Source of the DNA: Naegleria gruberi
Lineage: Eukaryota
Strand: one strand, 5' to 3'
DNA length: 64,000 nt
Assembly (NCBI GenBank): GCA_000004985.1
Contig: GG738908.1
Position 1 is the stretch's first letter. Every line of letters begins with the position of its first letter. This document shows positions 5,845-61,003 of the stretch, piece after piece. The position numbers were made by a program, and so were the translations under genes. The notes beneath the pieces were generated by a model, which did not search any database, was not told the DNA's origin, and saw only the letters and a program-made list of their open reading frames with translations.

Positions 5845-6012
5845 TTCTAATTCTAGTTCTATTATTTCAGAATGTATTACTACAACATTAAAATAATGGA
5901 AGCTATAAAAATATTCTAAATAATAACAAACTACAAACCTCAATGTGTCAACAGTCATCAATAAGGGAGATAGCTTTGAAAAACCTCCAATTCCATCAAA
6001 CTATCAAAAACA

Positions 6013-8829: not shown

Positions 8830-8851
8830 AGATTAATGTATCATTGCCAAA

Positions 8852-11437
8852 TCATTTAAATTTATAGAATGTGCTATTAGGTCCATACTTTTTCTTGAAT
8901 TGAATTTCGTCATAGTAATTGTTAAAAACGATAGTCTTGTTTTTGTTTTGGGATTTGTTTTGTTTCGTTGCAACGATAGGTTGTTGCTCTACTGACGATA
9001 TCGAATTCCTTCTGCTTCCCTTCTTTGAATTATTTGAACTGTTACTGGCAACAGCGGATACAGCACTAGCCACCATATTTTGTTCCAGTTGTCCTGTTGA
9101 AGAGCTGGCATTATTGATAGATCCCCTTACAGACGAACTTTTTCTCTTTGTTTTTGTTGGCTTCTCAACCCTGTTTACAAAAGTATTAATTGCAGGTGAT
9201 GAATGATGTCGTGGATGAACAGAAGTTTGATTATTCTCGAAACTTTGCTCATAATCTGTTCCAAAGGAACCAAAATTAAAAGTATTATTATTTGAAATCT
9301 CTATAGTTGGAACAGTTTCTTCACTAGACCTACTCATTGGACTAACAATTTCTTGAGGAACGTTGGTACTATGGGTAATTTGGAATTGTGGAGGAGATGA
9401 AAAAGTTCTAGAACGTGTTGGAAAATTATTTACAGGTGTTTCATTTGTAACAAGCTTTAGACCAAGAGATGATTTGCAACCACTCAGTGCATTATCGATC
9501 ATTGAATAAAGAGCTTGATTTTCATCTACTACTTCATTATTTGTATGTAATTGTTTTTGAAGAACTGTTTTGAGGAGAGAATCTCTTGGTAAAGTTGTTG
9601 AAGAATCTTCTGACATGTAACTTGCAACACTAGATCTACGTTGTTGTTGAGAATTTGAAACTACCACTTCATTCGATGATGTATAAGTATTAGAAACTGG
9701 AGAAGTTAAATTATTTTGATTTGACATGCACAACACTTGAAGAGCAGCCAACTGTTCTTGATTCAATTTAGAAATATCAATTTGACTCAAAAATGTTGCC
9801 AGAGGAGAAGGAGGAGGTGATTGTTCCATTGAGCTACATCCTGCAGAGGATGTTGGTGAATAGGTAACACTATTGTTATTATTTGCATTAAATCCAAAAT
9901 ACTGATACGAGTGATTATTATCCATCATCATTGCATCAGAAATCTCCATTTTGTCCTTTGAATGAAAGCTTCTGCTTCTGATAGTTCTCTTTGCTTTGTT
10001 TTGAATAATTTTGTCCATAGCAATTGTTGGAGAGCCATTCATTGGATGAAGAGATGATGTATGTTGATAACTATTGTCCATGATTGGAGCGTTCGTTAAT
10101 ACATCGGTTGAAGAAGGCAATTGGTGTTGCATAGAAGAGCAATTATTAGGTGATGAGGCAAAACTAGAATTTGATGAGGAAGGAGAGTAGAGATGTTGTT
10201 GTTGTTGCAAATTCGTATTGTTATTGTTCATATATGTGTTGACCATACCGTCGATATTAAATGTTTGATTCGCATCTCTCCTTAGTGGATTATGCAAGGA
10301 ATGGGATCTGGATCTTTGTATGATATTTGGTGTTGAGCGATGTTGAATATTATTGAATAAATTATTATTATTATTATTGAGTGATGTAGTTGGTAGAGTC
10401 GAGAAGGAACATGCAGTTGCTGAATCATCTTCTATTGAAAATGAAATTGCATCTAGATTCGAGGTGTCTGATGTATGTTGATGATGTTTTTGCTTGGATG
10501 AAACATTGTTTGACTCTCTCTCTCCATCTGAAATAAAAGAGTAATCTTTTTGTTGTTCATTATAAACCAAATCATTGGTCTTTGTAGTTCATATTGTATG
10601 TTTGAAGAGGTATGTTATATAATCAATGATCAAAGATGATGTATTTAAGCATGATGATGAGGATGAGAATGACAGATAATTATTAGTAAATAAACTATTT
10701 CTACTACTACTTACCATCATTTCAGTCTTGGAGAGGTGAGAATTTTCTTTAAATGTTAAGGGAGATGGACCAAACTCTCTCTTTTCGAAAGAACTTGTAT
10801 CGTTATACACATCAGAAGAACCAACCAGTAAGCCTTGGGGATTGCTATTAAATTGCATTTGTCTAAAAGAAAAGTCGGCATTTGATTCCGGCTTTTGCAC
10901 ATTTAAAGATGGATAAGCTTGTGTGGTGCTATTTGGAATATAACTAGTATGTATAAATGTTGAGGTTGTTAACATGTCGTTGCTCATGAAGGAATCCAAT
11001 GGTGCATTGATTCCGTTGCTAAAGGTATGTTGATTCAAACCATGATTGGCATGGGATGGCTGAATGCTGGATGTACTTGGTAGGAGAATGTGTGGAGATG
11101 GATTATGATGATTGCTTATCGAATGATGGTCAGACTCTTGTGAGAATAAATTATCAAAATTGTTATTCAAATCGTGTGGATTCAAAATTGTTTGGTGATT
11201 AAGGTATTGTTGGTTAAGTTCTTCCTGTTGTTGTTGAGTTAAAAAGGATGAAGGATTTTCGGACGATGAATATACCATTCTTGTGTGTAATTGCTGTGAT
11301 TGATCTAAGTTATCGAAAAGGTCAGACTCATCACAAGACTGCTTGTTAATTTCATTCAATATTTCTTGTTGTTGAGAAAGATTGGGATGCTGATGATTAA
11401 CAAGTTGTGAATGATGCAACTTTTGCTTATTGCTCAT
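8852..11437 (-). CDS. Asn/Gln/Ser-rich low-complexity protein, ~816 aa. Two exons: 10715-11437 and 8852-10579.
   Basis: The first ATG is at 11437. A 135-nt intron at 10580-10714 has a GTAAGT donor and a caaag acceptor. It contains the in-frame TGA that splits the two track ORFs. Both ORFs are in the same frame and the intron length is a multiple of 3. Confidence 0.6.
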
Positions 11438-12677
11438 CTTCAAAGAAAGCAAGAGCAATAAGCCAAATAAGGATGATTGTTTGAGTCTTTTTTCTAAGGA
11501 GATTTGTCAATACAATCCTAACAAGTCCGTTGCGAAGGTAACCTACTTACAATACTTTGTGAATTCAACACACAGAGAGAGTAATAAGCAACGAGTTGTG
11601 GATTCAACAAGAATGGAAGTAATTCTTTCCGTCTATATTTCTAGAGACCAACAAAATGGCAGGTGAATATTTGTGAATGGGTTTTAGGACTTGATTTTTT
11701 GGGTGTGGATCTTAATTAAGGAAGGCAGCCCGTACTTTTACAGTGTTGTGGAATTGAATCGAAGGTTGAGGATGCTCTCTATGGAATAAATTGTGCGGAT
11801 ACACAACAACAACAGCACAGTAAACACAACTAGATGATCACAGTTGTGTTTTTTAGCTTAGCTACTAGCCTGTAGATAGTCTTTTGGCGCACAAATGATG
11901 ACACTGCTGTAATGTGATAAATACTCTACTGTATAACCAACACACTGATTATCTTCTTATGATGATGACTGACGAGATATTTGATTACGGTTAAATATTC
12001 TTCTTTTTCTCTATGATGAATATTGGGAAGAAACAATTTTGAATCAAAAACTTCCAATATTTTAATGTATTGTATTAAAACAATGATGATGGACAAAAGA
12101 CCTTTTGATGATCAAAAAGCTAACCAGAATCACCACGACCAAAGTTTCTGTTGTAGAAGACGTGATAAAAGTTACCAAGGTGGGATGGTGTTGTTTTTTT
12201 CAATGTGGAAAGTTGAATGGCGGTAAACTTTCTTTTGGAAATGTCTGCACGTAAAAGTAAATCAAAAACAACCATAATATAAAGAGAGGGGGAACATTCT
12301 ATTGCCGGCAACACAATAGTGATGTCACCCTTTCAATTGGTGAATAATGTCTTTAATATATTGTAATGATCAAAGCTTTCTCTTTACAAAGTGGGAGAGA
12401 GAAGAACCCAATTATTTGATTATAATACAGGAAATAGTTATAGGAATGATGTTCAATGAAAATTGTGGAGTAAGCTGGTTTCAACTCGTGTGAAAAATCA
12501 AAGCACCGTTTGACTCAAAAGGGAGCACGAGTATGACAGACCAAAAAACAACATTATCCATATCAGTGGCCCAAATCAACAATTGGTTAAGAGGAATAAT
12601 TTCCAAAAGAACTTTATTAGACCGAGAGTTCTTTCAATATGTTACAACAATGAGAGTTCTAGGCAAGTGCTCTTACT

Positions 12678-44953: not shown

Positions 44954-45538
44954 ATGTTGTTTAATAACGACAACTGTCACCATGATGGCAAACCTTTCAT
45001 CATGCTTGCCATGATTCTTATCATGTTAACGATAACAACAATTGCCAACGCTTCCATGATGACCATCAATAGTGACTATAAATTACCAAATGGTGGTTTT
45101 TCTTTTAAATTTGAATTACAGGAACGATCTGGAAAATTGGAAAAGTACCACGGTACTACTGTAAGATATCAACAAACCAATGGAAATGCTGTAAACTTGT
45201 TATTGGAGAGTGCAACACTGGGTTTTGGAACATTCTTTGATTCGACAATTTTACATACATTTTTAAAGCCAATTTTGGGAGCAGATGGAGAGACAATGAC
45301 TGAATGTCTTCATTTGAATTATGATTCGCCTTGGAATAGTGGAGTTGAGATGAGTAAAATGTTGGACTTGATTGTTTTCAAGAAGGTTTCTCAAATGGAA
45401 GGTATTAGTTATTATGACAAGGAATTGAATGACAAGTGTTTCAAGAGAGGTTTGGAAGTTTATGCCTTCTCTGTAATGAGTGAAACTATGGCATTGTGTG
45501 CTGATGCTGTTACTATGGAACCAAGATATATTGTGTAG
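44954..45538 (+). CDS. Secreted protein (194 aa). It may be the N-terminal part of one gene together with the downstream hydrolase ORF.
   Basis: ATG at 44954. The signal peptide is KPFIMLAMILIMLTITTIANA. It ends at TAG 45536-45538, in the same frame as ORF 45572-46795 and only 33 nt upstream of it. Confidence 0.5.
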   Translation: MLFNNDNCHHDGKPFIMLAMILIMLTITTIANASMMTINSDYKLPNGGFSFKFELQERSGKLEKYHGTTVRYQQTNGNAVNLLLESATLGFGTFFDSTILHTFLKPILGADGETMTECLHLNYDSPWNSGVEMSKMLDLIVFKKVSQMEGISYYDKELNDKCFKRGLEVYAFSVMSETMALCADAVTMEPRYIV

Positions 45539-45571
45539 CCAGCCTTTGTTATCTCTATTTCAGAATTCACT

Positions 45572-46795
45572 TTGAGGGATGACAGCAAGAAAGTTACAGA
45601 ACTATCATCTCATGAAAAGTTCTACCTTGATCGTCTTGATGGGTTAATGGCTAACTGTACTTTCTATGACAGAAAGTGGTTGCAAGAAAATATGAGAAAA
45701 GAAACTGGCTCTCAACCAAATACAGCTGTCAGACAATTCATGGAAAAATACATTCAAAAGTACAAATTCAGTGGAAAGATCAATGCTCCAATATTGCAAG
45801 ATAATATTTACAAAACCTCCCACCAATTAAAGCCAATCAACACTCGTATCAGTTTGTGGTTCCAAAATGAGAGAGAAGCATGTGTATTGGCTCATATCAG
45901 AGACGAAAGTGCATGTAAGAGAATGATGAAATCCAATGAAAATAAGCCAACATGCATCTTCCTTCATGGAGCAGGTTACAAGAAAGATCTTCCTCCTCAA
46001 AAAACACTCTCTGATTATTGGGGTAATGTGGCAGATTATGTTCCTCAATGTGGTGATGTTTGGTTTGGAGCAAGAGATACCAAAAACTTTGGTTGGGATG
46101 ATGAAAACTTGCAAAAATACTATTGTGAAACAGCTTTGTTGGGAAGTGGAAACTCTTCCACCATCAAAAATACCATTATTTACTCTCACTCAATGGGTAA
46201 TCTCATTTTGGCTGCTGCTTTCAAGAATGGTATTTGTGATATTGATCTATCAACATCTGAGTGGTATACTATTGGTTCTCCATTCAATGGTTCACTTGTT
46301 TCAAGAACAGCTCAAAGTATTTGTTACGATTATTACTATGACAATTTCAAGCTCAATAAGAAGGGTATTGTTGGTTGGGTAATTACTTTGGCAGGTTATT
46401 GCATTAAGGGTACACCAGATATCTTCCCAAGTTATGCCTCTGTTGAGGAAGGTTACTGCTCTCCAAAAGATGGCACCTGCATTCACGATTTGTATCAATT
46501 TGCTGATCCTTACGATAAGGGAAGAATGTGTGGAGATACTCCAATTGGCTTAATTACTCACTACAGCATTGCTCTCGAACTAGTTCATCTACTTGCTGAT
46601 TTACAATATCAATCCGATGGATTTGTTACTTTCCCAGCATGTCAAATGGATGAAGCAAAGAAATTTACTAGTGAATCACCAAATGATTTATGGTATAAGG
46701 GTGGAATAAATCATGCAGATGCGACTTGTAGAAATGGAAATGGGTGGTTTGGTCTGGGTAGAAAACCATGTTCCTTCTATACTAACAAGCAATAA
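45572..46795 (+). CDS. Alpha/beta-hydrolase, lipase-like, with a GHSMG nucleophile elbow (407 aa as in the track; the first ATG is at 45644).
   Basis: FLHGAGYKK ... IIYSHSMGNLILAAAF (GxSxG). It is Cys-rich. The stop is TAA. Confidence 0.6.
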   Translation: MRDDSKKVTELSSHEKFYLDRLDGLMANCTFYDRKWLQENMRKETGSQPNTAVRQFMEKYIQKYKFSGKINAPILQDNIYKTSHQLKPINTRISLWFQNEREACVLAHIRDESACKRMMKSNENKPTCIFLHGAGYKKDLPPQKTLSDYWGNVADYVPQCGDVWFGARDTKNFGWDDENLQKYYCETALLGSGNSSTIKNTIIYSHSMGNLILAAAFKNGICDIDLSTSEWYTIGSPFNGSLVSRTAQSICYDYYYDNFKLNKKGIVGWVITLAGYCIKGTPDIFPSYASVEEGYCSPKDGTCIHDLYQFADPYDKGRMCGDTPIGLITHYSIALELVHLLADLQYQSDGFVTFPACQMDEAKKFTSESPNDLWYKGGINHADATCRNGNGWFGLGRKPCSFYTNKQ

Positions 46796-47064
46796 ATCAT
46801 CACCACAGAAACAAGAATTTAACTAATTCTTTTCATCATGCTGTGTGTAATTTTTGCTGTAATCAACTTGTGCCATTTTTAAATATTATGATGCACATAC
46901 CTGCAAGTATCTAGTTATATTCATGTTTGATAACTCCTGAATCAACACAAATTCCTTCCGAGAATAACATTCTCTTCATCCTCTTATTCTCTTCTTTCTT
47001 CAATAATAAAAAAAACAAAATCTTTAAAAAATAATTATTGTAAAAAAAAATTGTTTTTGAAAAA

Positions 47065-49557
47065 ATGCGTAATTTCTCTTCTTTGCTGAAGTCTTCCACA
47101 AAGACGAAAGTAATTTCATCAACACCATCATCATCTCTTCTTAGTCAAATTAGAAGTTATTCAATCACTCACACTGTTTTGGAGGAAAATAAGGATGGTA
47201 ATCGTGGTCAAAATAATAGACCACAACAAGGTGGTAAACCATTCGTAAAAAAGACCTACAATAACAATAACTCTCAACAAGGAGGACAACAAGGAGGTGA
47301 GAATAGACCATACTACAAGAAACAATACAATAATAATAACAACGCTAGTGGTCAAGCACAAAGCACACACAACAAGAGACCATACATGAAACCAAAACCA
47401 CAAGGAACAACCCCACAACAAACTTCTACTTCAACTACTAATACTACCACTGCCAACACTACAAACACTTCCGCTGCTCCAAAGAGAATTGTTAAGAAGG
47501 ACGGTGAATTGTTGAAGGAAGCCCAAAAGTTGAAGGAACTTCAAAAGAAAATTAAGAATGAAGACGCAAATACTTCATCCACAGAAGTTGTTGAAGCACC
47601 TTTGGAAGAAGAGGAAGGCGTAATTATTGTCGATGATGCTGCTCAACCAACACAAAAGATTATGCAAAAGAGAGCCTTGAGTGAAGAAATTGAAAAGCAA
47701 GAATATTTAATGAGATTAGAAGGAAAGAAAAAGAAGCCATCTACTTCATTAAAGATTGCTAGTAATAAGAAGAAGGGTGCCAGAAAGCAACAAAGAAAGA
47801 AGGAAGGACAAAGCGAGGAAGGTGAAGAAGGAAAGGAATTCAAGGGTGAATTCAGAAGAAAGAAGAAGGGTGAAGAAGAAGAGGAAGAAGATGTTCTCAA
47901 GACTGATATTGAATTGAATCAAAGCTTTGCTGAAACAATTGATAGAATTTATACTGGTTTTAACCCAGAGTTGGTTCACGAACAACTTAACTCGATATCT
48001 AAGAGAGGTTTCATTCCAGCTATGGCTGAAATCGGAGCTGAAAGTGGTGCTAATTTTGCTCCACTCATGAAGCAAATTTTGACAGGAGTTGCCATTCACG
48101 ATGAAGCCTATCATAATCTTATGAGATTTGTTTCTAATTATCAAGCTCTTGCTCAAAAAGTTTTGGATTCTATGGAAGATAAGGAAAGAGCTGATAGTAT
48201 TAGAGAAATTTATCCATTCTTGGGTGAAGGTGCTACTATTGAAATTGACTCTAACTTTGATGTTAACGAATTTTTGAAACTCAATCCTGATGTTAGAATG
48301 AATCTTGTCCAATTGTTCGATCCTGACTATTTTACAAATTTGGAAGCTGTTGAATCTAAGGCTGCTAAGGACTTGGAAACTTTGGCTAATGAAGGAAAAT
48401 TAACTAGAAAGGAATTGGATTTATACAAGCAAGAAATTTCAACTTCACTTTTGGCTGAAAAATTATTGAACTATTTTAACTCTAAATTATTCTCACTCCA
48501 ACTTGCTGGTGTTAGTGATTTCTTCTTACAACAGGAAACTGTTAAGGAATTGGCTGATCACTGTTTTGATACTATTGTCAGAAAGAGAGGTTCTGCTGTC
48601 GTTCCATTCCTTCCAGAAGCTGAAAGAAACTTTATTGAAGAACGCGAGGCTAATTTGGGCATGAAATATGGCATTACTAGAGAAAATTTACATACATTTG
48701 TTGGAAAGGAATCACTTTTACGTGAAGGTACTTATCAAAGTTTGAATGGAAGAATTGAAGAATTACTTTCAAAGAAACGTGTCAACACAATTGCTATCGA
48801 AAATAGATTGAAGATTGAACAACCAAGTGATGACTTTGATAATGAAGACGAATACTACTATGGTGATGAACAAAATCCAGTTGAAGCTAAGGAAAAGAGA
48901 GCTAATGCTGTCAATTCAATGCTTGCAGACTTTAAATATCTTCCATTGAAGAGTCACGTCAGTGCTATCAGACATAAGATTAAGCAAAGATTATATCACA
49001 TTATGAAATACGTTTATGAACCAAAGCTTGAAACTATCCCATATATAAGAGATATTCCATTTACTAGTGGTCAATATCACCATGCTGGTAAGACTGGATC
49101 TTTTGCCAAGTTTGCTCCAATTGAAAGAAACTTTGATGAAATTATTGAATCAAGTAGTTCACCTGATTCTATTGCTAGAATTGTTCTCATCAATTATTCT
49201 AGAGCTTTGGGTCAAAATGATACAATTGACATGAAGTCTAAGATGAGTTTGATGCACAGATTTGGATCCTTCATCAAGACTCTCGATGAACAAGGAGATT
49301 TGATTGAACCTGTTGCTCTCAATAACGGTAAGAGAACCCACATTCACCCTAACAGAGTTAATCCTCGTGATGCTGAATTGGATCTCAAGTCTATTCACGT
49401 CAATGAACCTGAAGAACACTGGTTCTGGAAGTACATGGAAGAAGCTAGTGATAAGGTTGATGATGTCATTAGTAAGAGACTTGCTAGTGAAACTAAACGT
49501 TCCGATATTGGACGAGGTGGTAAGCCAAAAGTTAAGAAAGTTAGATCAAAGAAGTAA
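47065..49557 (+). CDS. Hypothetical 830-aa protein. Its N-terminus looks like a mitochondrial presequence, followed by a Gln/Asn/Lys-rich region.
   Basis: ATG at 47065. The N-terminus is MRNFSSLLKSSTKTKVISSTPSSSLLSQIRSYS (basic, hydroxylated, no acidic residues). There are Lys/Glu tracts. No family was assigned. Confidence 0.55.
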   Translation: MRNFSSLLKSSTKTKVISSTPSSSLLSQIRSYSITHTVLEENKDGNRGQNNRPQQGGKPFVKKTYNNNNSQQGGQQGGENRPYYKKQYNNNNNASGQAQSTHNKRPYMKPKPQGTTPQQTSTSTTNTTTANTTNTSAAPKRIVKKDGELLKEAQKLKELQKKIKNEDANTSSTEVVEAPLEEEEGVIIVDDAAQPTQKIMQKRALSEEIEKQEYLMRLEGKKKKPSTSLKIASNKKKGARKQQRKKEGQSEEGEEGKEFKGEFRRKKKGEEEEEEDVLKTDIELNQSFAETIDRIYTGFNPELVHEQLNSISKRGFIPAMAEIGAESGANFAPLMKQILTGVAIHDEAYHNLMRFVSNYQALAQKVLDSMEDKERADSIREIYPFLGEGATIEIDSNFDVNEFLKLNPDVRMNLVQLFDPDYFTNLEAVESKAAKDLETLANEGKLTRKELDLYKQEISTSLLAEKLLNYFNSKLFSLQLAGVSDFFLQQETVKELADHCFDTIVRKRGSAVVPFLPEAERNFIEEREANLGMKYGITRENLHTFVGKESLLREGTYQSLNGRIEELLSKKRVNTIAIENRLKIEQPSDDFDNEDEYYYGDEQNPVEAKEKRANAVNSMLADFKYLPLKSHVSAIRHKIKQRLYHIMKYVYEPKLETIPYIRDIPFTSGQYHHAGKTGSFAKFAPIERNFDEIIESSSSPDSIARIVLINYSRALGQNDTIDMKSKMSLMHRFGSFIKTLDEQGDLIEPVALNNGKRTHIHPNRVNPRDAELDLKSIHVNEPEEHWFWKYMEEASDKVDDVISKRLASETKRSDIGRGGKPKVKKVRSKK

Positions 49558-49636: not shown

Positions 49637-50269
49637 TTAAGAATCAAAATCTACAGTCATTTTGATTTTAACCAGAGTATTGGCAGCTTGAACATCTTCA
49701 TTTTCAATCTCAAACTCTGATTCCGAATATGACATGTCAGATTGTTCATCATTCGTTGTGGAAGTATCCTCATCTACATCCATTTTATATTCGTCTTCAT
49801 CGTCTTCTGTTTCAACTTCATCTTCACTCTCACTGTCAGATTCCACATTAACCTTTCTTGTTTGTCTTGTTCTTCTTGGTCTTGATGATTTTGCAGGAGG
49901 AGATCGACCACCACTGCTACTATTATTTGACATGTCTATTGAGTGTCCGGAAGATGAGACCGATCTAGCCCACGTTCCAAGTTTCCCCTCATCTGACAGT
50001 TCTCTTATTAGATCATTGTCCTTATTACGTGGTGTATTTGGATTTGATTTTTTATAAGCTGCTAATACCTTGTCAAGTAAGGGTCTAACTAATCTTCTTC
50101 TTGCATTGATGAACCAATTGTTAATACTCTTCATCTCTAGGCTTGTTTGATTAGATAACTGGTTCTTTTGTGCATCCGAAGGATAGGGGTGAAATAAATG
50201 ATCGTACAACCATTCTTTTAATTGTTCAACAGCTTCTTTTGGGAGTGTTCTTTTTTGAGCTTCTGACAT
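49637..50269 (-). CDS. TALE-class homeobox transcription factor (210 aa).
   Basis: ATG at 50269. The homeodomain has the three-residue loop extension: KEWLYDHLFHPYPSDAQKNQLSNQTSLEMKSINNWFINARRRLVRP. The C-terminal tail is acidic. Confidence 0.8.
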   Translation of the reverse strand: MSEAQKRTLPKEAVEQLKEWLYDHLFHPYPSDAQKNQLSNQTSLEMKSINNWFINARRRLVRPLLDKVLAAYKKSNPNTPRNKDNDLIRELSDEGKLGTWARSVSSSGHSIDMSNNSSSGGRSPPAKSSRPRRTRQTRKVNVESDSESEDEVETEDDEDEYKMDVDEDTSTTNDEQSDMSYSESEFEIENEDVQAANTLVKIKMTVDFDS

Positions 50270-51262: not shown

Positions 51263-53703
51263 ATGTCTTCAATCCGATCTATTTATTTGCTCTCCACAAA
51301 TCCACTCAAATTGCCAGAATATGTTCGTAATTTTGATCGATATGGTGTTAGGGTAGTCATTCGTGATCCGAAGGATTTTGATACTGATCAGAAAAAGTTG
51401 GAGTTTTTACAACAAAATACATCTGCTATTTGTTTTATTTGTGATCAGATGGATTTGTTCAAGAAGGGAACAAGTGAAAGGGCTAAATTGGAACATTTGG
51501 AATTGGTAGAAAGTAGTACAGAGTTGACAGTTTGGCAATTGAATAAGGAAAAGGATGCTCTTGTCAAGAAGGTTTTCAAGAATGTTCAGTATGGATTTAT
51601 TGATTTATCAAGAAAGAAGCCAAACTTGTTGAGAAAGACTGTATTTGGTTGGGATGATGTATTTGTTAATTTATACTCTGGTAAGAGTAATTTGGATCAA
51701 ATTGAATCAGGTGGCTCGAAGATTTCCTCTCGTGATATGGCTATTTCAGAATATATCAAGGAAAGATTCTACTATTCCAAGAGAAAGGATTTGAATTTTA
51801 CTCCACAAAATATTACTGAGAGAACTATTGATTTTAGAAAGAGTGTCTTGACATATTTTGAAGGACATAATTTGTACAATAATGAGTCAACTAGAAAGTA
51901 CAAGATTACCAATGTTTGGAAAACTGTTGTCAATGATGGTTTGGTATTCAAGTCTTCAAAGAATAGAAGAGAAAATAATTACTTTTCAACTCTTCTTAAT
52001 CCAGCACTTCCACTCGTTTCAAAGAGGGATCCAATTCATGAAACTACATTCCAAATGCATGACTGTGGACATTTTTGCATTCTTGAATTGATTTATACTG
52101 GTTATGAATCTACTGAATTGCAAAAGCTTGTATATATTGCTTTCAGAATGATTAGTGAGGCAGTTACCATGATGATGGCAGACGTTTTATTTATTCATGC
52201 ATTGAAAATGCAAGGTATTGAGTATGACTTTGATTCCAGAAAGATTTATCCTCTCTATTCCAGTTCTAATTTGGATTTTGATAGGGATGGTATTGTTCCA
52301 ACTTTGGAAAAATTGATTAGAGCCAATGTTGATCTTGCCCTCAAGGGAAATGACACCAAATTCAAAGCTATAGCCTCTACAGAAGCTTTAAAGACATTCA
52401 AGGACAAGTAAGTATTGAACGATTTGATATTTTATTGAAAATTTTCATTAGATTTGTACCATTCTTTGTTGAAGATTACAAGTGGAATGCAAACAATTAT
52501 CAAAATATGGAAACTAGAAAGGAGGAGATTAAAAAGTGGTGGGACAGTGTTGAACATGTTCGCCACTATACTCCAGAAATCAGATTCCTTACCATTGATG
52601 AGTTTATTGCACACATGGAAAATTACACTCCATCTGAGCTCACTTCTCTTCACACTGATGAAATTGTAGATATTGTATTTGAAACTGTGTGGCAAGAAAT
52701 GGTCAAGCCAGTATTTGAAAAGGATACAATTGAAGTTTTACCAGAAGAGCGTAGAAATTTCAATACTTTTGTTCGTTACATGTGTGGTCAATTGGCAATC
52801 TTTTCTGCCTTTGAAACTCCAGAATCATCCATCTATCGCGATGGTATTCTCAAGTTTATTAAGGAAAAGGCCAAGACCAAAACAATGACAATTGATGAAA
52901 TTGAGAATGCAGAGACTTTCTTTGGAGCCTATGTTGATTTGTTGGCCCAAAAGAATATGATTACCTATGATGATGCTTCCACCTATAAGGAAATTTATCC
53001 AATGTTTGAACCTTGCTACGTTTTCTATGATGAAAACAAATCCTACTATGATTCTCTTTCGAATGTCTACAAGAGACTCTTCAAGATTCCACACAGAATT
53101 ATTATTATGGGTTTACCAGGTTGCGGAAAGGGCACTCAATCCAAGTTGATTGCTGAAAAGTATGGACTCGTTCATATTTCAACAGGTGATTTGGTTAGAG
53201 AAGTTATCTCTAAACAAACAGAGCTTGGTAAAAAGTGTGAAGCCATCATTAACACTGGTGGTTTGTTGCCTGATGAGTTGATTAATCCAATTTTCTTGGA
53301 TAGAATCCTCAAAGAAGATTGCAAGACTAAGGGTTGGATTCTTGATGGATATCCAAGAACTACTTCAAATCTCGAATTTGTCAGAGCCAATCGTCTTAAT
53401 GTGACAGGTGTCATTTTCCTCACTTTGGACGATGATACAGCCATAGAGAGACAGTGTGGTCGTATTACTGACCCATTGACTGGAGCAATCTATCACAGCA
53501 AGTTCTTACCTCCTACTGAAGAAATCAGAGAACGGTTGGTTAAGCGTGCAACTGATAATGAAGAAAAGGCCAAGATTAGAGTTAAGGTTTATCATGACGA
53601 AATGGATCAAGCATTTGATTGGTTCCCAGAAGAAATCTCTCACAAGATTGATGCCACTCCTTCTCCAGAGGAAGTATTTGAGGCAATTAAAAAGCTCTTG
53701 TAA
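51263..53703 (+). CDS. Two-exon fusion gene, ~798 aa (exons 51263-52407 and 52452-53703). A ~380-aa N-terminal domain of unknown function is joined to a C-terminal adenylate kinase domain.
   Basis: ATG at 51263. A 44-nt intron (gtaagtattgaacg...ttcattag) at 52408-52451 joins ...ALKTFKD|K|FVPFF... in frame: the codon AA|A is split by the intron. Exon lengths 1145+1252 = 2397 nt. The adenylate kinase P-loop is IIIMGLPGCGKGTQS. The NMP-binding segment is GDLVRE...TGGLLPDEL...LDGYPRT. The LID-like segment is QCGRITDPLTGAIYH. Confidence 0.75.
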
Positions 53704-53747: not shown

Positions 53748-54536
53748 TTAATTAATATTTAATTTGGCTCCGTTATCATCCAATTTTCTATAGAAAGCTG
53801 GCTCTCTAATAATTAATGGATATCTTTGGTGAGCAAGTTCACACATTAATGAGCAAATTTCTTGAACTTCAGTTTCGTTTCCAAAAGATGTCATTCTTCC
53901 AATAAGCAATTTGTGTAAATCTTTGATACTGATAGTGAATGTCAATGCATTGCATTTACAACCCAAATTGAGCATATTAAAGAATTCGGTATTTAACATT
54001 TCATTATTGACACCCTTCTTATCCCAAAATTGCTTATTTTCCTCTCTCAATTTCAAAAAATCTCTAATCATCTTTTTTTGGATTTCCTTGCTTTCTCCTT
54101 GAACACGATAAAAATTCTCACACATGGCCATTGTCTTGGAGGAAGTAAGACGAGCAATGGTTGCCTCCTTATGAGCACACAATTCCAAACAAGTTTCCAC
54201 TGTACAACCAGCAATCAAGAATGTAACATGAGTACCAGCATAGATTGACAAGTGTTTAGCTTCATTGATCATACGATCGTGAAAATTCAAACTCTCCTCT
54301 TGAGTTATTGGTTGATCTTTAAAGCTCAAGTATGTAATTCTACCTTTAAATTCGGCCGATTGCAAATAATCATCACCATGATTACAATGCATTGCTTCAT
54401 ACAATTCTTTTGCTTCTTCGGTATTTTGTGTAACTTCGGTGATCATCACTCCTGGTTTAATGACAAATAAATCATCTTCAACAATTCCTCCACTCTTTGT
54501 GATGAGAGTTCCGAGACGGCTTTTAAATTGAGACAT
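53748..54536 (-). CDS. ThyX-family (flavin-dependent thymidylate synthase-like) protein, 262 aa, with a non-canonical motif where RHRxxS...SxR is expected.
   Basis: ATG at 54536. By hand it aligns to ThyX: AKHLSIYA...TFLIAGCTVETCLELCAHKEATIARLTSSKT against HKHWSIFE...[29 protein letters not shown]. The C-terminal helix SIKDLHKLLIGRMTSFGNETEVQEI matches TIRDWIHYIELRTSNGTQREHIDLA. Confidence 0.5.
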   Translation of the reverse strand: MSQFKSRLGTLITKSGGIVEDDLFVIKPGVMITEVTQNTEEAKELYEAMHCNHGDDYLQSAEFKGRITYLSFKDQPITQEESLNFHDRMINEAKHLSIYAGTHVTFLIAGCTVETCLELCAHKEATIARLTSSKTMAMCENFYRVQGESKEIQKKMIRDFLKLREENKQFWDKKGVNNEMLNTEFFNMLNLGCKCNALTFTISIKDLHKLLIGRMTSFGNETEVQEICSLMCELAHQRYPLIIREPAFYRKLDDNGAKLNIN

Positions 54537-55757: not shown

Positions 55758-56807
55758 CTAGTCAATTCTGATTACAACCTTTCCAAAGTGCTTTCCACTA
55801 GCCAAATACTCAAAAGCTTCTTTTACATTCTCAAAGTCAAACACCCTATCTACAACAGGTTTAATTTCATTAATTTCAATGGACTTGTTCATCCTCTCAA
55901 ACACACCTCTCGATCCAATATAAATTCCCCTCATCTGGACCGAACTATAGAGAACCTTCTCTCCAAATCCACTACAGGTTCCAGCAGACTTGGCCAAAAC
56001 ACCAATAATATGGACATGCCCTCCCAAACGCACAGCATCCAGTGAACGATTCAAAGTGCCCTCTCCACCAACTTCCAACACATGATCGACACCTTTTCCG
56101 TTAGTAATTTCTCTCACCTTAATTTCCCAATCTGGATGTTTCTTATAATTAATTAAAAAAGAAGCACCAAGAGATTGAGCGAGTTTTAACTTTTCATCAC
56201 TGGAGGACAGTACCATAACTTGGCAACCAGCTCTTACTGCAAATTGAAGACCAAACAGAGAGACACCACCAGTTCCAATAATGAGAACAGTTTCGCCTGG
56301 GCCTGCCTTGACACCATTCTCATTGAGAGCACTCCATGCAGTGACTGCAGCACATGGTAAGGTTGAAGCTTGTTCATAACTCAAATGAGAAGGAAACTTG
56401 ATCAAAGCACTCTCTTCAAAGACACGATATTGAGCCAAGACTCCTGGTACAGTAGCACCAAGAGCACGAGAGACATTGTCAGGAGTGATAGGACCATCTT
56501 GCCAAGTTTCAAAGAAGGTTCCACATACACGATCACCAATTTGAAAGGAAGTTACTTCATCTCCCAAGGCAACTACTTGTCCAGCTCCATCTGAGAGTGG
56601 AATTAATCCTGGTGGGAAGGAGAAACTTCCAAATTGACCTCTCGAGATGAGAATGTCTCTAAAGTTGAGACTGGCTGCATGTAAACGAACAAGGACTTGT
56701 TTTCTTTGGGGAGTTTCTACTGGTTCTGAAGGGAAGAGAGTAAGACCATGTGTGCCTTCAAAATGTTGTAGACGATATTGTTTTTGTGTGGTTGGGATTT
56801 CTGCCAT
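55758..56807 (-). CDS. Medium-chain dehydrogenase/reductase family, quinone-oxidoreductase / zinc-type alcohol-dehydrogenase-like (349 aa).
   Basis: ATG at 56807. The nucleotide-binding segment is VLIIGTGGVSLFGLQFAVRAGCQV. The overall MDR layout is LVRLHAASLNFRDI...GDRVCG... The stop is TAG, which is unusual here. Confidence 0.8.
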   Translation of the reverse strand: MAEIPTTQKQYRLQHFEGTHGLTLFPSEPVETPQRKQVLVRLHAASLNFRDILISRGQFGSFSFPPGLIPLSDGAGQVVALGDEVTSFQIGDRVCGTFFETWQDGPITPDNVSRALGATVPGVLAQYRVFEESALIKFPSHLSYEQASTLPCAAVTAWSALNENGVKAGPGETVLIIGTGGVSLFGLQFAVRAGCQVMVLSSSDEKLKLAQSLGASFLINYKKHPDWEIKVREITNGKGVDHVLEVGGEGTLNRSLDAVRLGGHVHIIGVLAKSAGTCSGFGEKVLYSSVQMRGIYIGSRGVFERMNKSIEINEIKPVVDRVFDFENVKEAFEYLASGKHFGKVVIRID

Positions 56808-57269: not shown

Positions 57270-58961
57270 TTAATAGTAAATATCTCTGACACCTTCAGCA
57301 ATTCTTTCAAGGTTCTTCTTGAGTGACTTTCTCTTGGCTTCAGATGGAATGTTCTTTTGTTCTTCTTCAATTCTGTTCCAACCAACAGTTTGAGTTTTTT
57401 CATCGGCATAGTCATGCAAGTATTCAGCAAGTGTCATGATACTGTTAGGATGACACATATTTTGAATGTCACCCTTCTTGGCAATCTTCATAAACTTTTC
57501 ACCAGTACGATTCATTCTGTAACAAGCAGTACAGAAGCTTGGCATGTATCCAGTTTCCAATAATTCACGAATAACTTCACCAGTATTTCTGTGATCACCT
57601 AATGAGAATTGACCCATAGAGTAGTCATCACGCTCGTCTTCCTTCTTTTCATAACCACCAACTGCAGTGTTGGATCCAGCAGACATTTGTGAAATACCAA
57701 GAGAAAGCAATTCTCTTCTCATATCTGGATTTTCTCTTGTGGAGAGAATCATACCAGTGTATGGAACTGAACATCTCAATACAGCAACCAATTTTTTGAA
57801 TTGAGCATCACTGACAAGGTTTGGAACATGAACAGAAACCTCAGAGCCAGATGCTGGTTTCAGTCTTGGAACTGAGATGGTGTGTGGGCCAGCATTCCAA
57901 ACATCACTCAAATGGTTAGCATGTTGCAACATTGCCAACACCTCGAATCTATAGTCATATAAACCAAACAAAGCACCAATACCAACATCATCCAATCCAG
58001 TCACGAAGGCCTTATCCATGGTTTGCAATCTGTCGTAGTATTGTCCTTTAGTACCAAATGGATGCATTTCCTTGTGTGTTTGACGATGATAAGTTTCTTG
58101 GAACAAGATGTATGTTCCGACCTTGTTGGTTGCCTTCAATCTTCTAAAATCAGAAACACTCAATTGAGGAATTTCAACATTGATTCTTCTCACATCACCA
58201 TGAGGTTCAGTCTTGACATCAGCAGCAACTTGCAATTGTCTCATAAAATCTTCAAATGTATACTTTGGACTTTCTCCGCACAACATTAAAATTCTCTTGT
58301 GACCTTGTTTTTGTAAAGCTTCAACTTCTCTAATGACTTCTTCATCAGAGAGGGCTGATCTTGGCATTTCCTTATTAGATCCTCTGTATCCACAATATAA
58401 ACAACTTCCAACACAATAATTACTAGTATACAGTGGTGCAAACAAAACAATTCTGTTTCCGTAAATTAATTCCTTAATATAAAAAGCTGTTGTATATAAA
58501 CTGTTGAGAATATCAGTTTCTTCCTCTGGAATATTCAACAAGGTTGCAGTATCTTCAAGTGACAATCCTTGAATATATTCATCTTTAGGAATGGTTTCAC
58601 AACTTTGTGATTCAACTTCTCCACCATTCTTCTTATTTCGGAGAAGTGGTGATTTGAGCAAGGCTTGATCTCTAGCTCTCTTCAAAATTTGTCGAACGTG
58701 TTCATGATCTTTGGCTTTTTCCTTTGTTTCTTCCATCATTTGATGAATAAGTTTTTCATCAATAATTTTGGTTGGATCTGGAAGTTGTTTCAAGGTTTCT
58801 GGTTCTCTTTCTACGGACCACCTAGCTTGTGATTTAATGGATGTATGGAAATTCTTTGATGCAGATAACAATGAAGCACTACTACCATTAGTAACAGCAC
58901 AACTACTCAAAAGACCTGATCTTCTTCCACCATTAGCAGCCAATCTAGCTAAACTCTTCAT
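57270..58961 (-). CDS. hydG: [FeFe]-hydrogenase maturase HydG (radical-SAM tyrosine lyase), 563 aa, with an N-terminal targeting-like extension.
   Basis: The radical-SAM motif is CVGSCLYCGY (CX3CX2C). The HydG-specific C-terminal auxiliary-cluster motif CTAC-X22-C (CX2CX22C) is present exactly. It is ThiH-like overall. The N-terminus is MKSLARLAANGGRRSGLLSS. Confidence 0.88.
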   Translation of the reverse strand: MKSLARLAANGGRRSGLLSSCAVTNGSSASLLSASKNFHTSIKSQARWSVEREPETLKQLPDPTKIIDEKLIHQMMEETKEKAKDHEHVRQILKRARDQALLKSPLLRNKKNGGEVESQSCETIPKDEYIQGLSLEDTATLLNIPEEETDILNSLYTTAFYIKELIYGNRIVLFAPLYTSNYCVGSCLYCGYRGSNKEMPRSALSDEEVIREVEALQKQGHKRILMLCGESPKYTFEDFMRQLQVAADVKTEPHGDVRRINVEIPQLSVSDFRRLKATNKVGTYILFQETYHRQTHKEMHPFGTKGQYYDRLQTMDKAFVTGLDDVGIGALFGLYDYRFEVLAMLQHANHLSDVWNAGPHTISVPRLKPASGSEVSVHVPNLVSDAQFKKLVAVLRCSVPYTGMILSTRENPDMRRELLSLGISQMSAGSNTAVGGYEKKEDERDDYSMGQFSLGDHRNTGEVIRELLETGYMPSFCTACYRMNRTGEKFMKIAKKGDIQNMCHPNSIMTLAEYLHDYADEKTQTVGWNRIEEEQKNIPSEAKRKSLKKNLERIAEGVRDIYY

Positions 58962-59428: not shown

Positions 59429-61003
59429 ATGATGAAGGGATTGAAAAAATCAGCCACGACACTTCTAAGATCGTCCAAGAGTGGTGGTATCAACTTTAAA
59501 GCAGCATCATTGATTTCGGAATTGAAGTTTGTTCCGAATCAATTGTTGATGAGAAATAACTTTTCTACTTCTTTGATACAACAACATGGCGACCACCACC
59601 ATGATCATCATCATCATGATTTGATGGAGGATGAACTGTTACCTACTCCTAAAAAGACAATTATCAATATTAAAGAACCTCCAATACCTACAGAAGTTGA
59701 TTTGGGAGCAATGGGTGAGCAAGTTGCAACAGCATCATCAGCCAATTCTGATCCAAAAGCTGCTGAACGTAAAATGAAAAGAGCAAGAACTGTAAATTAT
59801 CTTCAAAAACCACTCGAACAGAGAATTTTAGTATTGGAAAAGTATTTTGGAGTGAAACCAGAACTTGGAAAACCTGTGGAATTAACAAAGGAACAAATTG
59901 TAAATGTTTTAAATATTGAGGATCATGAGGAACAAAGAGCTCTCTTTGACTATGCCAATTCAATTACTGAATCAATTTATGGCTCAAAGGTTTACTTTAG
60001 AGGTATTATTGAATTTTCAAATGTTTGTCAGAAGGACTGCAATTATTGTGGTATTAGAAAACATATGCAAGTACCAAGATATACAATGCCAAAAGAAGAA
60101 ATAATAGAACAAGCTATTTGGGCCTATGAAAATCATTTTGGATCCATCATGTTACAATCTGGTGAATTGAATACAGAAGGAAGAATCTCAATGTTAGTCG
60201 ATGTCATTCGTGAAATTAAGAAACGTACAGGTGGAGGAGGTCCAGGTGAATGGAATAAGGGACTTGGTATTGCTCTCGGTGTTGGTGAATTGAGTAGAGA
60301 ATCTTATCAGAGATTATATGATGCTGGTGCTCACAGATATCTCCTAAGAATTGAAACATCCAATCCAGAACTCTACTCTAAACTCCATCCTAACGATGAA
60401 AATCACGTATGGGAAGAACGAAAGAAGTGCTTGGAAACTCTAATGGATATTGGATATCAAACTGGTACTGGTGTAATGATTATGATTCCAAATCAAACAG
60501 TTCAAGATTTGGCAGACGATTTACTCTTCTTTAGAAAAATTGGAGCTGATATGATTGGTATGGGACCATACATTGTTCAAGAAGGAACACCAATTGGAAA
60601 GATTTGGATGGAGCAATATGGTCACATGAATGAAGCAGAAAAGAAGGAATATAACAGAGTTCTATTCAGATTGGCTCTGAAGATGACTGCCCTGGCAAGA
60701 ATTTTAATTCCTGAAGCTAATATTTCTGCAACAACAGCTCTTCAAGCCATCAATCCAGCTGGTAGAGAAATAGCTTTAAGTTCTGGTGCCAATATGGTCA
60801 TGCCTATTATTACACCAACCAAGTATCGTGTCAATTATCAACTCTATCAAGGAAAACCTTGTATTGATGATACTAAGGAAGAATGTAAGAGATGTTTAAC
60901 AGATCGTGTTAAATGGTCTAACAAGCAATTGATTTTAGATGAATGGGGTGATCCAATCAGCTACTTTAATAAGAGAAATATGAAAGTACCGAACAAGGAA
61001 TAA
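59429..61003 (+). CDS. hydE: [FeFe]-hydrogenase maturase HydE (BioB-like radical-SAM), 524 aa, with an N-terminal targeting-like extension.
   Basis: ATG at 59429. The radical-SAM motif is CQKDCNYCG. The HydE-specific C-terminal motif C-IDDTKEE-C-KR-C (CX7CX2C) is present exactly. The N-terminus is MMKGLKKSATTLLRSSKSGG...NFSTSLIQQ, followed by a His-rich tract HGDHHHDHHHHD. Confidence 0.88.
   Translation: MMKGLKKSATTLLRSSKSGGINFKAASLISELKFVPNQLLMRNNFSTSLIQQHGDHHHDHHHHDLMEDELLPTPKKTIINIKEPPIPTEVDLGAMGEQVATASSANSDPKAAERKMKRARTVNYLQKPLEQRILVLEKYFGVKPELGKPVELTKEQIVNVLNIEDHEEQRALFDYANSITESIYGSKVYFRGIIEFSNVCQKDCNYCGIRKHMQVPRYTMPKEEIIEQAIWAYENHFGSIMLQSGELNTEGRISMLVDVIREIKKRTGGGGPGEWNKGLGIALGVGELSRESYQRLYDAGAHRYLLRIETSNPELYSKLHPNDENHVWEERKKCLETLMDIGYQTGTGVMIMIPNQTVQDLADDLLFFRKIGADMIGMGPYIVQEGTPIGKIWMEQYGHMNEAEKKEYNRVLFRLALKMTALARILIPEANISATTALQAINPAGREIALSSGANMVMPIITPTKYRVNYQLYQGKPCIDDTKEECKRCLTDRVKWSNKQLILDEWGDPISYFNKRNMKVPNKE

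Follow-up and report, generated by a model that had tools for sequence, protein, structure and literature searches.

A ThyX-like protein of Naegleria gruberi with a substituted active-site loop and an ITPase-like/adenylate kinase partner points to a deep sister family of flavin-dependent thymidylate synthase

Introduction

The gene described here lies at positions 53748..54536 (minus strand) of a 64,000-nt stretch of Naegleria gruberi contig GG738908.1 (assembly GCA_000004985.1), referred to as the window, and encodes a protein with the predicted fold, but not the active-site motif, of the flavin-dependent thymidylate synthase ThyX. Judged from sequence, this ThyX-like protein is part of a deep sister family of ThyX that stands apart from it and has spread horizontally, and in which the substituted active site is a conserved signature and the gene is coupled to that of a partner protein with an inosine triphosphatase (ITPase)-like domain and, in Naegleria, an adenylate kinase (ADK) domain. 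We see an even chance that the protein is an active ThyX-fold enzyme that does not make thymidylate and that would work at the nucleoside monophosphate (NMP) stage of a line leading from a nucleoside triphosphate (NTP) through NMP to a nucleoside diphosphate (NDP).

ThyX is a target for antibiotics, and humans lack it. To our knowledge, ThyX in essence stands for a single enzyme that carries out a single reaction, with PolB as a close variant. An earlier reading of the window from its DNA letters (the original prediction) had marked the gene as a ThyX-family member with a substituted motif, and had left it open whether it is a degenerate paralogue, possibly a pseudoenzyme, or a ThyX relative with another substrate.

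Results

Fold and homology of the ThyX-like protein

An uninterrupted open reading frame (ORF) on the minus strand fills exactly positions 53748-54536 (262 codons) and constitutes an intronless coding sequence, stop included, for a protein of 262 aa that is a 100% match to ENA protein P0001. The Pfam Thy1 profile (PF02511) aligns with this protein over profile positions 10-190 of 191 (E = 0.0016), at a score of 18.7 bits that is below the gathering score of 24.8 bits; the profile check proposed in the original prediction thus supports it by its nearly full span and not by its score. Thy1 is also matched by 29/29 aligned relatives (best E-value 6.2e-11), some of which pass the gathering threshold, and the family profile retrieves the ThyX enzymes of Mycobacterium tuberculosis and Corynebacterium glutamicum among PDB sequences (HMMER, E-values of 1.5e-5 to 7e-5). 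An AlphaFold model made from the family alignment (pLDDT 90.2, pTM 0.87) was compared with the PDB using Foldseek and matched ThyX structures only (E ~1e-8, TM-score 0.65-0.74, identity 12-15%), namely those of M. tuberculosis, C. glutamicum, PBCV-1, Thermotoga maritima and Helicobacter pylori. The single sequence had no match among PDB sequences with phmmer, and the NCBIfam scan gave no match for the protein. Since the Thy1 matches of the relatives, the family profile, the AlphaFold model and the Foldseek results agree, homology to ThyX is secure at the family level, and the protein, as modeled, has the ThyX fold, in line with its original assignment. Compared with ThyX (TM0449, Rv2754c; EC 2.1.1.148), the fold is common over the whole chain, and one can still make out the N-terminal E-x3-R-x2-Y helix as well as the GHxS block.

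Active-site loop and residue map

Residues 121-135 read AHKEATIARLTSSKT (54132..54176, minus strand; translation and profile alignment) in place of the ThyX motif RHRxxSxxxxSxRY. In the HMMER family-profile alignment this loop stands opposite RHRHFSFSQLSQRFV of C. glutamicum ThyX, and over RHRxxSxxxxSxR the window protein has AHKEATIARLTSS opposite RHRHFSFSQLSQR of the same enzyme, so an intact RHR motif had not been overlooked. The change of RHR into AHK and the loss of the last arginine had been read correctly from the letters. The further claim that the first serine of the motif is a glutamate does not hold, as this serine aligns with Thr126, and Glu124, which aligns with the residue directly after RHR, is off register.

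The residue map combines the family alignments to the M. tuberculosis and C. glutamicum enzymes (HMMER) with an hhalign alignment to TM0449. The latter, of the family against this single sequence, is weak, C-terminal and structurally sensible, and was used only beside the HMMER alignments. The TM0449 sequence used for numbering is identical to PDB 1kq4/1o26, and the PDB mutants S88A, Y91F and R174K confirm the numbering. In this map, T. maritima Q75, R78, E86, G89, R90, Y91 and R165 become E118, A121, R129, S132, S133, K134 and K205 in the window protein, S88 is conservatively replaced by T131, R80 and S83 become K123 and T126, both variable across the family, and H79 is kept as H122. His95 (54252..54254, minus strand) is the kept and invariant equivalent of T. 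maritima His53, with gHlSv opposite GHFSV of M. tuberculosis. Equally kept and invariant is Arg214 (53895..53897, minus strand), which corresponds to T. maritima Arg174 (hhalign) and to the base-binding Arg199 of M. tuberculosis (HMMER). At 53976..53987 (minus strand; hhalign to TM0449), Glu184 is the retained T. maritima Glu144, and Asn187 replaces Arg147, which binds the phosphate of deoxyuridine monophosphate (dUMP); both columns are invariant.

In M. tuberculosis ThyX, dUMP is held by Arg87, Arg95, Ser105, Arg107 and Arg199 beneath a lid formed by Tyr108 (PMC6514825). The set Arg87/Arg95/Ser105/Arg107/Tyr108/Arg199 corresponds to Val113/Ala121/Thr131/Ser133/Lys134/Arg214 in the window protein, so that Arg199 alone is kept of the six and Ser105 has become Thr. 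Ser88 and Tyr91 of T. maritima are strictly conserved and critical for ThyX activity, and Arg90 is conserved (PMC11940539); their places are taken by Thr131, Lys134 and Ser133. Overall, Arg78, Arg90, Tyr91 and Arg147 are lost, and the window protein falls short of every residue-level mark of ThyX membership that could be tested. The T. maritima mutants H53D, E144R and R174K have been crystallised with flavin adenine dinucleotide, folate or dUMP (PDB entries). By alignment, the retained residues (the equivalents of H53, H79, E144 and R174) make up the putative flavin/folate/base face, and the dUMP-phosphate clamp and the tyrosine lid appear to be swapped for a Ser/Thr/Lys-rich loop, together with the new Arg129 and Glu124.

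Conservation of the substituted site across the family

A word-indexed search of 5.8 billion proteins yielded 58 relatives of the ThyX-like protein, and conservation was analysed in an alignment of 29 sequences with 38-76% identity to the window protein. There are 27 invariant columns, including H95, E118, H122, E124, R129, L130, T131, S132, S133, T135, E184, N187, K194, R214 and E221. The polar set E118, E124, R129, T131, S132, S133, T135 and N187 is thus conserved equally with the retained ThyX residues, and Glu118, Glu124, Arg129 and Asn187 are invariant residues that are new with respect to ThyX. The strict pattern xHxExxxxRxT[S/T]SxT is present in 144/204 relatives, with Ala at its first position in 133, Ser in 11 and Arg in none, and R-x-T-S is still kept in the divergent relatives outside it. 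We therefore describe the family by the motif [A/S]HxExxxxRxT[S/T]SxT and the residues H95, E118, E184, N187, R214 and E221, all of which are found in the window protein. When 1.84 billion cluster representatives were searched exhaustively with HMMER, 137 clusters reached E ≤ 1e-30, and 489 reached E ≤ 1e-3; as this number is far below what canonical ThyX would contribute, the family is well separated from ThyX.

Between the gene and its Naegleria lovaniensis orthologue, the proportion of nonsynonymous differences (pN) is 0.175 per site and that of synonymous differences (pS) is 0.76, a saturated value for which dN/dS is not computable as a ratio. A pN so far below a saturated pS indicates strong purifying selection among Naegleria. 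In combination with the conservation of the loop across the relatives, this contradicts a decaying pseudoenzyme, and a pseudogene or degenerate paralogue was rejected on the near-invariant loop signature and on pN << pS. Of the two options that had been put forward, the sequence data favour the second, a ThyX relative with another substrate, in view of loop conservation, selection and the partner module.

Our literature search found no description of the ThyX-like family, its partner or their fusions. Present annotations call relatives ‘thymidylate synthase ThyX’, or else ‘adenylate kinase’ or ‘hypothetical’, and the first of these labels is probably wrong for members of the family.

Structure of the partner gene

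The partner gene lies on the plus strand, tail-to-tail with the ThyX-like gene, with a stop-to-stop gap of 44 nt. Two ORFs of the window (51263-52411 and 52435-53703) match different halves of single bacterial proteins of 560-590 aa. Removal of a 44-nt GT...AG spliceosomal intron (52408..52451, plus strand; gtaagt...cattag) joins ...TFKDK/FVPFFVEDYKW in frame and collinear with the bacterial homologues, and the two apparently separate ORFs are therefore one gene for a protein of 798 aa, whose N. lovaniensis orthologue is annotated with 800 aa. Exon 1 (51263..52407, plus strand; an ORF with bacterial homologues of 34-40% identity) encodes the ITPase-like domain and the first part of a helical domain, and exon 2 (52452..53703, plus strand, stop included) encodes the remainder of the helical domain and the ADK domain.

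The N-terminal ~170 residues are ITPase-like. Their signature motifs (51293..51733, plus strand), STNPLKLPE (51293-51319), FGWDDVF (51644-51664) and KISSR (51719-51733), compare to the Ham1 (PF01725) motifs NxxKxxE, FGYDPxF-like and KxSHR-like. Among PDB sequences, the partner is best matched by KomB, a HAM1-like protein of the Kongming system, and the NCBIfam scan gave no match for exon 1. The central ~400 residues are all-helical and rich in His, Asp and Glu, and no solved structural relative of this domain was found. Its most conserved block, NRRENNYF...KRDPIHETTFQMHDCGHFCILEL (51962..52090, plus strand), is a candidate metal or active site: N251, Y257, W258, P260, L262, N263, P267, K271, D273, H276, E277, H283, D284, H287, P291 and D292 are invariant in 33 partner homologues, and the resulting pattern N..YW.P.LN...P...K.D..HE.....HD..H...PD suggests such a function. 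The C-terminal ADK domain (53095..53703, plus strand) matches Pfam ADK (PF00406) at 3e-36 and TIGR01351 at 186.9 bits, above the cut-off of 168, and has the P-loop GxPGxGKGT, TGD(L/M)xR, DGxPR and the LID arginines. BLAST gave no placement for the origin of the Naegleria ADK domain.

Linkage, fusions and distribution of the pair

Linkage was assessed in reference genomes and 38 metagenome loci, and a locus with at least 2.5 kb on either side was considered well flanked. The partner gene is located within 2 kb of the ThyX-like gene in 16/19 well-flanked prokaryotic loci. Both genes adjoin each other in Legionella sp. D16C41, Aquimarina sediminis, a Saprospiraceae metagenome-assembled genome (MAG) and Naegleria, as well as in two gammaproteobacterial MAGs and one Proteobacteria MAG, and in Rhizobium sp. 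BK176 the partner gene adjoins that of a more divergent ThyX-like protein. Fusions of partner and ThyX-like protein occur in at least 39 protein clusters, at least 20 of which also have an N-terminal adenylate kinase (1000-1560 aa). Such tri-fusions are present in the bdelloid rotifers Adineta vaga (I4U23_019879), A. ricciae and Rotaria magnacalcarata, in a bacterial MAG and on a 523-kb contig with giant-virus features. Tupanvirus soda lake has a full-length counterpart of the partner (Foldseek E-value 2e-44, TM-score 0.88), and partner homologues were found in the Clydonella and Abedinium transcriptomes.

Several fusions and loci show further peculiarities. In tandem double ThyX-like proteins (P0108, P0111, P0115 and P0117), the RLTSSKT loop is present in one copy only, and in tri-fusions such as P0142 and P0119 the segments of the ThyX-like profile are rearranged into the order 1-38, 99-256, 28-110; the sequences of these tandem or rearranged regions suggest a built-in pseudo-heterodimer. 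The ThyX-like domain is also fused, N- or C-terminally, to an RrnaAD-like methyltransferase with an NPPY motif (P0109, P0132 of locus L022 and P0147, all metagenomic), a combination that hints at a link to methylation of an amino group of a base. Five loci (L036, L040, L042, L043 and L059) have a conserved ORF of 315-324 aa without Pfam match between the ThyX-like and partner genes, which lie ~950 nt apart, and this subgroup probably represents Bacteroidota. The same intervening ORF is present in L003, where no partner is detectable in the next ORF (590 aa). The neighbours of the partner in Vibrio sp. Of7-15 (L015, region 4838-11725) are an adenylate kinase, a Ham1 that stands alone, a nucleotide translocase of the TLC type and an MFS transporter. 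Among 2.9 million IMG/VR contigs there was one match only (L021; UViG 3300042923_001726, 911 kb), with short fragmentary ORFs that are not interpretable and that suggest a mis-binned eukaryotic contig, introns or another genetic code.

Accessory genes of the bacterial operons

All additional genes of the bacterial operons encode nucleotide enzymes or transporters: an adenylate or guanylate kinase (GMK), a HAD phosphatase, an APH/choline-kinase-type kinase, MFS or TLC transporters, and a PurN-like formyltransferase (FT) that is fused to, or precedes, MazG and that keeps the N-x-H...D triad, which we take to be that of PurN, and the GSN loop. In the five FT-MazG loci examined (L001, L006, L013, L018 and L024), the ITPase-like domain of the partner has lost FGWDDxF and KxSxR in 5/5 and NxxKxxE in 4/5, whereas the ITPase signature motifs are kept in most loci without MazG, the window among them. 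This loss of motifs where MazG is present indicates that the NTP pyrophosphohydrolase step seems indispensable and is supplied by either domain, with MazG as the apparent functional replacement of the ITPase-like domain in the FT-MazG operons.

We also compared the position of E. coli Adk Gln92, which presumably contacts the adenine of adenosine monophosphate (AMP), in L017, L018, L024, L015, the fusions and the window. The module-linked ADKs mostly replace this residue: Asn takes its place in the window partner, Leu in three operons, and His both in Vibrio and in the rotifer-type fusions, whereas a housekeeping Adk that shares a contig with one operon still has Gln (L017; 2595-3230 versus 5101-5874). 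If Gln92 indeed makes the adenine contact, its replacement suggests that the module kinases are tuned to an NMP other than AMP.

Naegleria context

The closest named orthologues of the ThyX-like protein are the hypothetical proteins C9374_009201 of N. lovaniensis and FDP41_010481 of Naegleria fowleri, both 76% identical, and the gene is kept in synteny in at least three Naegleria species. In N. lovaniensis, the order is a HydE-like gene, a HydG-like gene, the ThyX-like gene and a convergent gene for an ADK-containing protein of 800 aa, as in the window. A dictyostelid origin was therefore rejected, and the ThyX-like protein is not a paralogue of the dictyostelid thy1 type, which the original prediction had named as the founding member of the ThyX family. 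The G+C content is ~35% both at the gene and across the window. The pair probably reached Naegleria horizontally, its donor being a bacterium with a partner-ADK-(FT-MazG)-ThyX-like operon.

At higher coordinates than the ThyX-like gene, the window encodes the [FeFe]-hydrogenase maturases HydG (57270-58961, minus strand; TIGR03955, 477 bits, cut-off 312) and HydE (59429-61003, plus strand; TIGR03956, 295 bits, cut-off 255). The N. lovaniensis locus (L023) has this divergent pair beside its ThyX-like gene as well. In the window, HydG and the ThyX-like gene are separated by an ORF of 349 aa resembling zinc-dependent alcohol dehydrogenases (ADH) and quinone oxidoreductases (55758-56807, minus strand); the N. 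lovaniensis locus has no counterpart of this zinc-ADH-like ORF at the equivalent position, and it may be a lineage-specific insertion. On the other side, upstream in the numbering of the window, a Homeobox_KN (TALE) ORF was found at 49637-50269 (minus strand; 4.7e-19), and three long ORFs of 194, 407 and 830 aa at 44954-49557 (plus strand) had no Pfam match at E ≤ 1e-3. FT-MazG, HAD, GMK, APH kinase and canonical ThyX were searched for among the genes of the window, and none was found.

Discussion

Proposed function

Taken together, the domains, their fusions and the way in which MazG and the ITPase-like domain complement each other suggest a line of three steps, in which we infer catalysis, cofactor use, step order and substrate identity from sequence. 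The ITPase-like domain of the partner would cleave an NTP, probably a non-canonical purine, to the NMP, a task that the MazG domain would take over in some bacterial operons. The ThyX-like protein would then alter the base at the NMP level by one-carbon or redox chemistry of the flavin/folate type in its rebuilt pocket, with RLTSSKT in place of SxRY, and the His/Asp/Glu-rich helical domain of the partner may join in this step. Finally, the fused or operonic adenylate-kinase-type enzyme would phosphorylate the product to the diphosphate.

A bolder version, possible and in our view rather unlikely, is that the ThyX-like protein would be the first ThyX-fold enzyme to act on a non-pyrimidine nucleotide, a purine NMP that it would convert by one-carbon or redox chemistry of the flavin/folate type. 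The ITPase-like domain may then deliver the substrate, and a specialised adenylate kinase may return the product to the pool. Candidate substrates may be a 6-oxopurine such as inosine or xanthosine monophosphate (IMP, XMP), an N6-modified AMP or a ring-opened purine precursor. Arg199 of M. tuberculosis ThyX pairs with the N3-deprotonated uracil lactam (PMC12004180). By analogy, the lactam of a 6-oxopurine would offer Arg214 a face like that of uracil, which would fit a substrate fed by an ITPase. The chemistries that may be considered, in no order of preference, are demethylation of N6-methyl-AMP (m6AMP) with tetrahydrofolate as methylene acceptor, reduction of N6-hydroxy-AMP, and one-carbon ring closure together with the PurN-like enzyme.

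Several observations weigh against the proposed function. As the first Arg of RHR and the catalytic Tyr91 are gone, flavin chemistry of the ThyX type may not persist, and as the central domain of the partner has no recognisable fold relative, this domain may be the catalyst in place of the ThyX-like protein. Purine specificity is deduced from the association with ITPase-like, ADK and GMK proteins only. Moreover, the well-flanked loci L003, L011 and L054 have no detectable partner, and in L015 the partner has no adjacent ThyX-like gene.

Alternative explanations

The loss of Ser88, Tyr91 and Arg90, replaced by Thr, Lys and Ser, and additionally of Arg78 and Arg147, could also mean that the ThyX-like protein is a non-catalytic regulatory or scaffold subunit that binds a nucleotide or folate, with the chemistry done by the partner and the kinase. 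The large fusions are rearranged and the second copy in tandem proteins lacks the RLTSSKT loop, as expected of structural copies, and HAM1-like domains can be sensors, as in KomB. We nevertheless consider a non-catalytic subunit unlikely: the rebuilt loop and ~15 more polar residues at active-site positions are invariant at 38-50% identity, which one would expect of a catalytic site, or of a site with high ligand specificity, more than of a scaffold, and His95, His122, Glu184 and Arg214 are selectively kept. KomB also belongs to a defence system, and its resemblance to the N-terminal domain of the partner, the presence of the module in Tupanviruses, on a probable giant-virus contig and in a Legionella sp., the surroundings of L003 (a methyltransferase, a NERD domain and a resolvase) and the fusions with the NPPY-type methyltransferase would all suit a system of biological conflict, anti-viral or counter-defence, that makes or destroys a modified or signalling nucleotide during infection. 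Such a role would account for the occurrence of the module in giant viruses, bacteria associated with amoebae and eukaryotes prone to horizontal gene transfer, but is quite improbable in our judgement. PADLOC-DB gave no significant match for the ThyX-like protein, the partner, the HAD protein or the APH kinase, with weak generic P-loop and AbiTi-like matches only, and IMG/VR gave a single match. Most bacterial neighbourhoods are housekeeping-like (Dus, biotin carboxylase, S-adenosylhomocysteine hydrolase and 2-oxoglutarate dehydrogenase), and the gene is stably retained in synteny, under purifying selection, in at least three Naegleria species.

A true flavin-dependent thymidylate synthase with alternative active-site residues would agree with the ThyX fold, with the kept equivalents of His53, His79, Glu144 and Arg174 and with the label ‘thymidylate synthase ThyX’ that some sources give to relatives. 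These labels, however, are automatic annotations, the window protein lacks the defining motif as well as the Ser88/Arg90/Tyr91/Arg147 set that is essential to ThyX and scores below the Pfam gathering threshold, and the constant partners are of the purine type (ITPase-like, ADK and GMK) instead of dUTPase or Tmk, all of which makes a thymidylate synthase very improbable. Naegleria is, we assume, generally held to have a ThyA-type dihydrofolate reductase-thymidylate synthase (DHFR-TS); a literature search on Naegleria DHFR-TS gave nothing usable. Finally, the nearest relatives outside Naegleria are bacterial or metagenomic and the gene is intronless, as might be expected of an assembly contaminant or a dead relic of a bacterial insertion. 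The convergent partner gene, however, has a GT-AG intron, the G+C content is uniform, the flanks carry a homeobox gene, HydE and HydG, and N. lovaniensis shares the gene order with pN far below pS. The intron, the Naegleria synteny and the eukaryotic or Naegleria-typical flanking genes exclude contamination, and together with G+C content and selection they effectively refute this explanation, whose probability we consider negligible.

Comparison with known systems

ThyX stands alone, whereas the ThyX-like family is coupled to the ITPase-like/ADK partner. The nearest precedent for a ThyX fold recruited beyond thymidylate supply is PolB of polyoxin biosynthesis, a ThyX paralogue that methylates C5 of uridine monophosphate and dUMP (PMC5954106). 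PolB differs from the ThyX-like family in that it still acts as a methylase of uracil nucleotides, is a close Streptomyces paralogue and has no ITPase/ADK partner. It presumably also keeps the canonical ThyX motif. The closest relatives of the N-terminal domain of the partner are the Ham1/ITPase proteins (RdgB, ITPA and PH1917) and KomB; in the partner, this domain heads a protein of 560-800 aa and is followed by ~400 residues without known relative and, in Naegleria, by ADK, and its signature motifs are lost in the MazG-containing operons of the module. The three-step logic implied for the module is that of deoxyuridine triphosphatase (dUTPase)-ThyX/ThyA-Tmk and of T4 gp56-gp42-gp1 (dCTPase, dCMP hydroxymethylase and dNMP kinase), as an analogy and not as homology of pathways. 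In contrast to these lines, the parts of the module are of the purine type, and its component with a thymidylate synthase-type fold is ThyX-like, not ThyA-like.

Implications

Thanks to the Rosetta-stone fusions and the complementarity of MazG and the ITPase-like domain, recombinant proteins offer a direct test of the hypothesis, and the finding would be categorically new only if non-pyrimidine chemistry were demonstrated for the ThyX-like family. If the purine proposal is true, the pair would constitute a previously unknown pathway of purine-nucleotide modification or repair that has spread horizontally among bacteria, giant viruses, Naegleria and bdelloid rotifers. The pathogen N. fowleri has the pair and humans apparently do not, which would be of practical interest if the pair is essential. 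In Legionella-like bacteria, Bacteroidota, Tupanviruses, N. fowleri and rotifers, the ThyX-like family would stand for a step of nucleotide metabolism that annotation has missed, and a deep and widespread sister family of this kind would give the ThyX fold a second, unexplored catalytic life.

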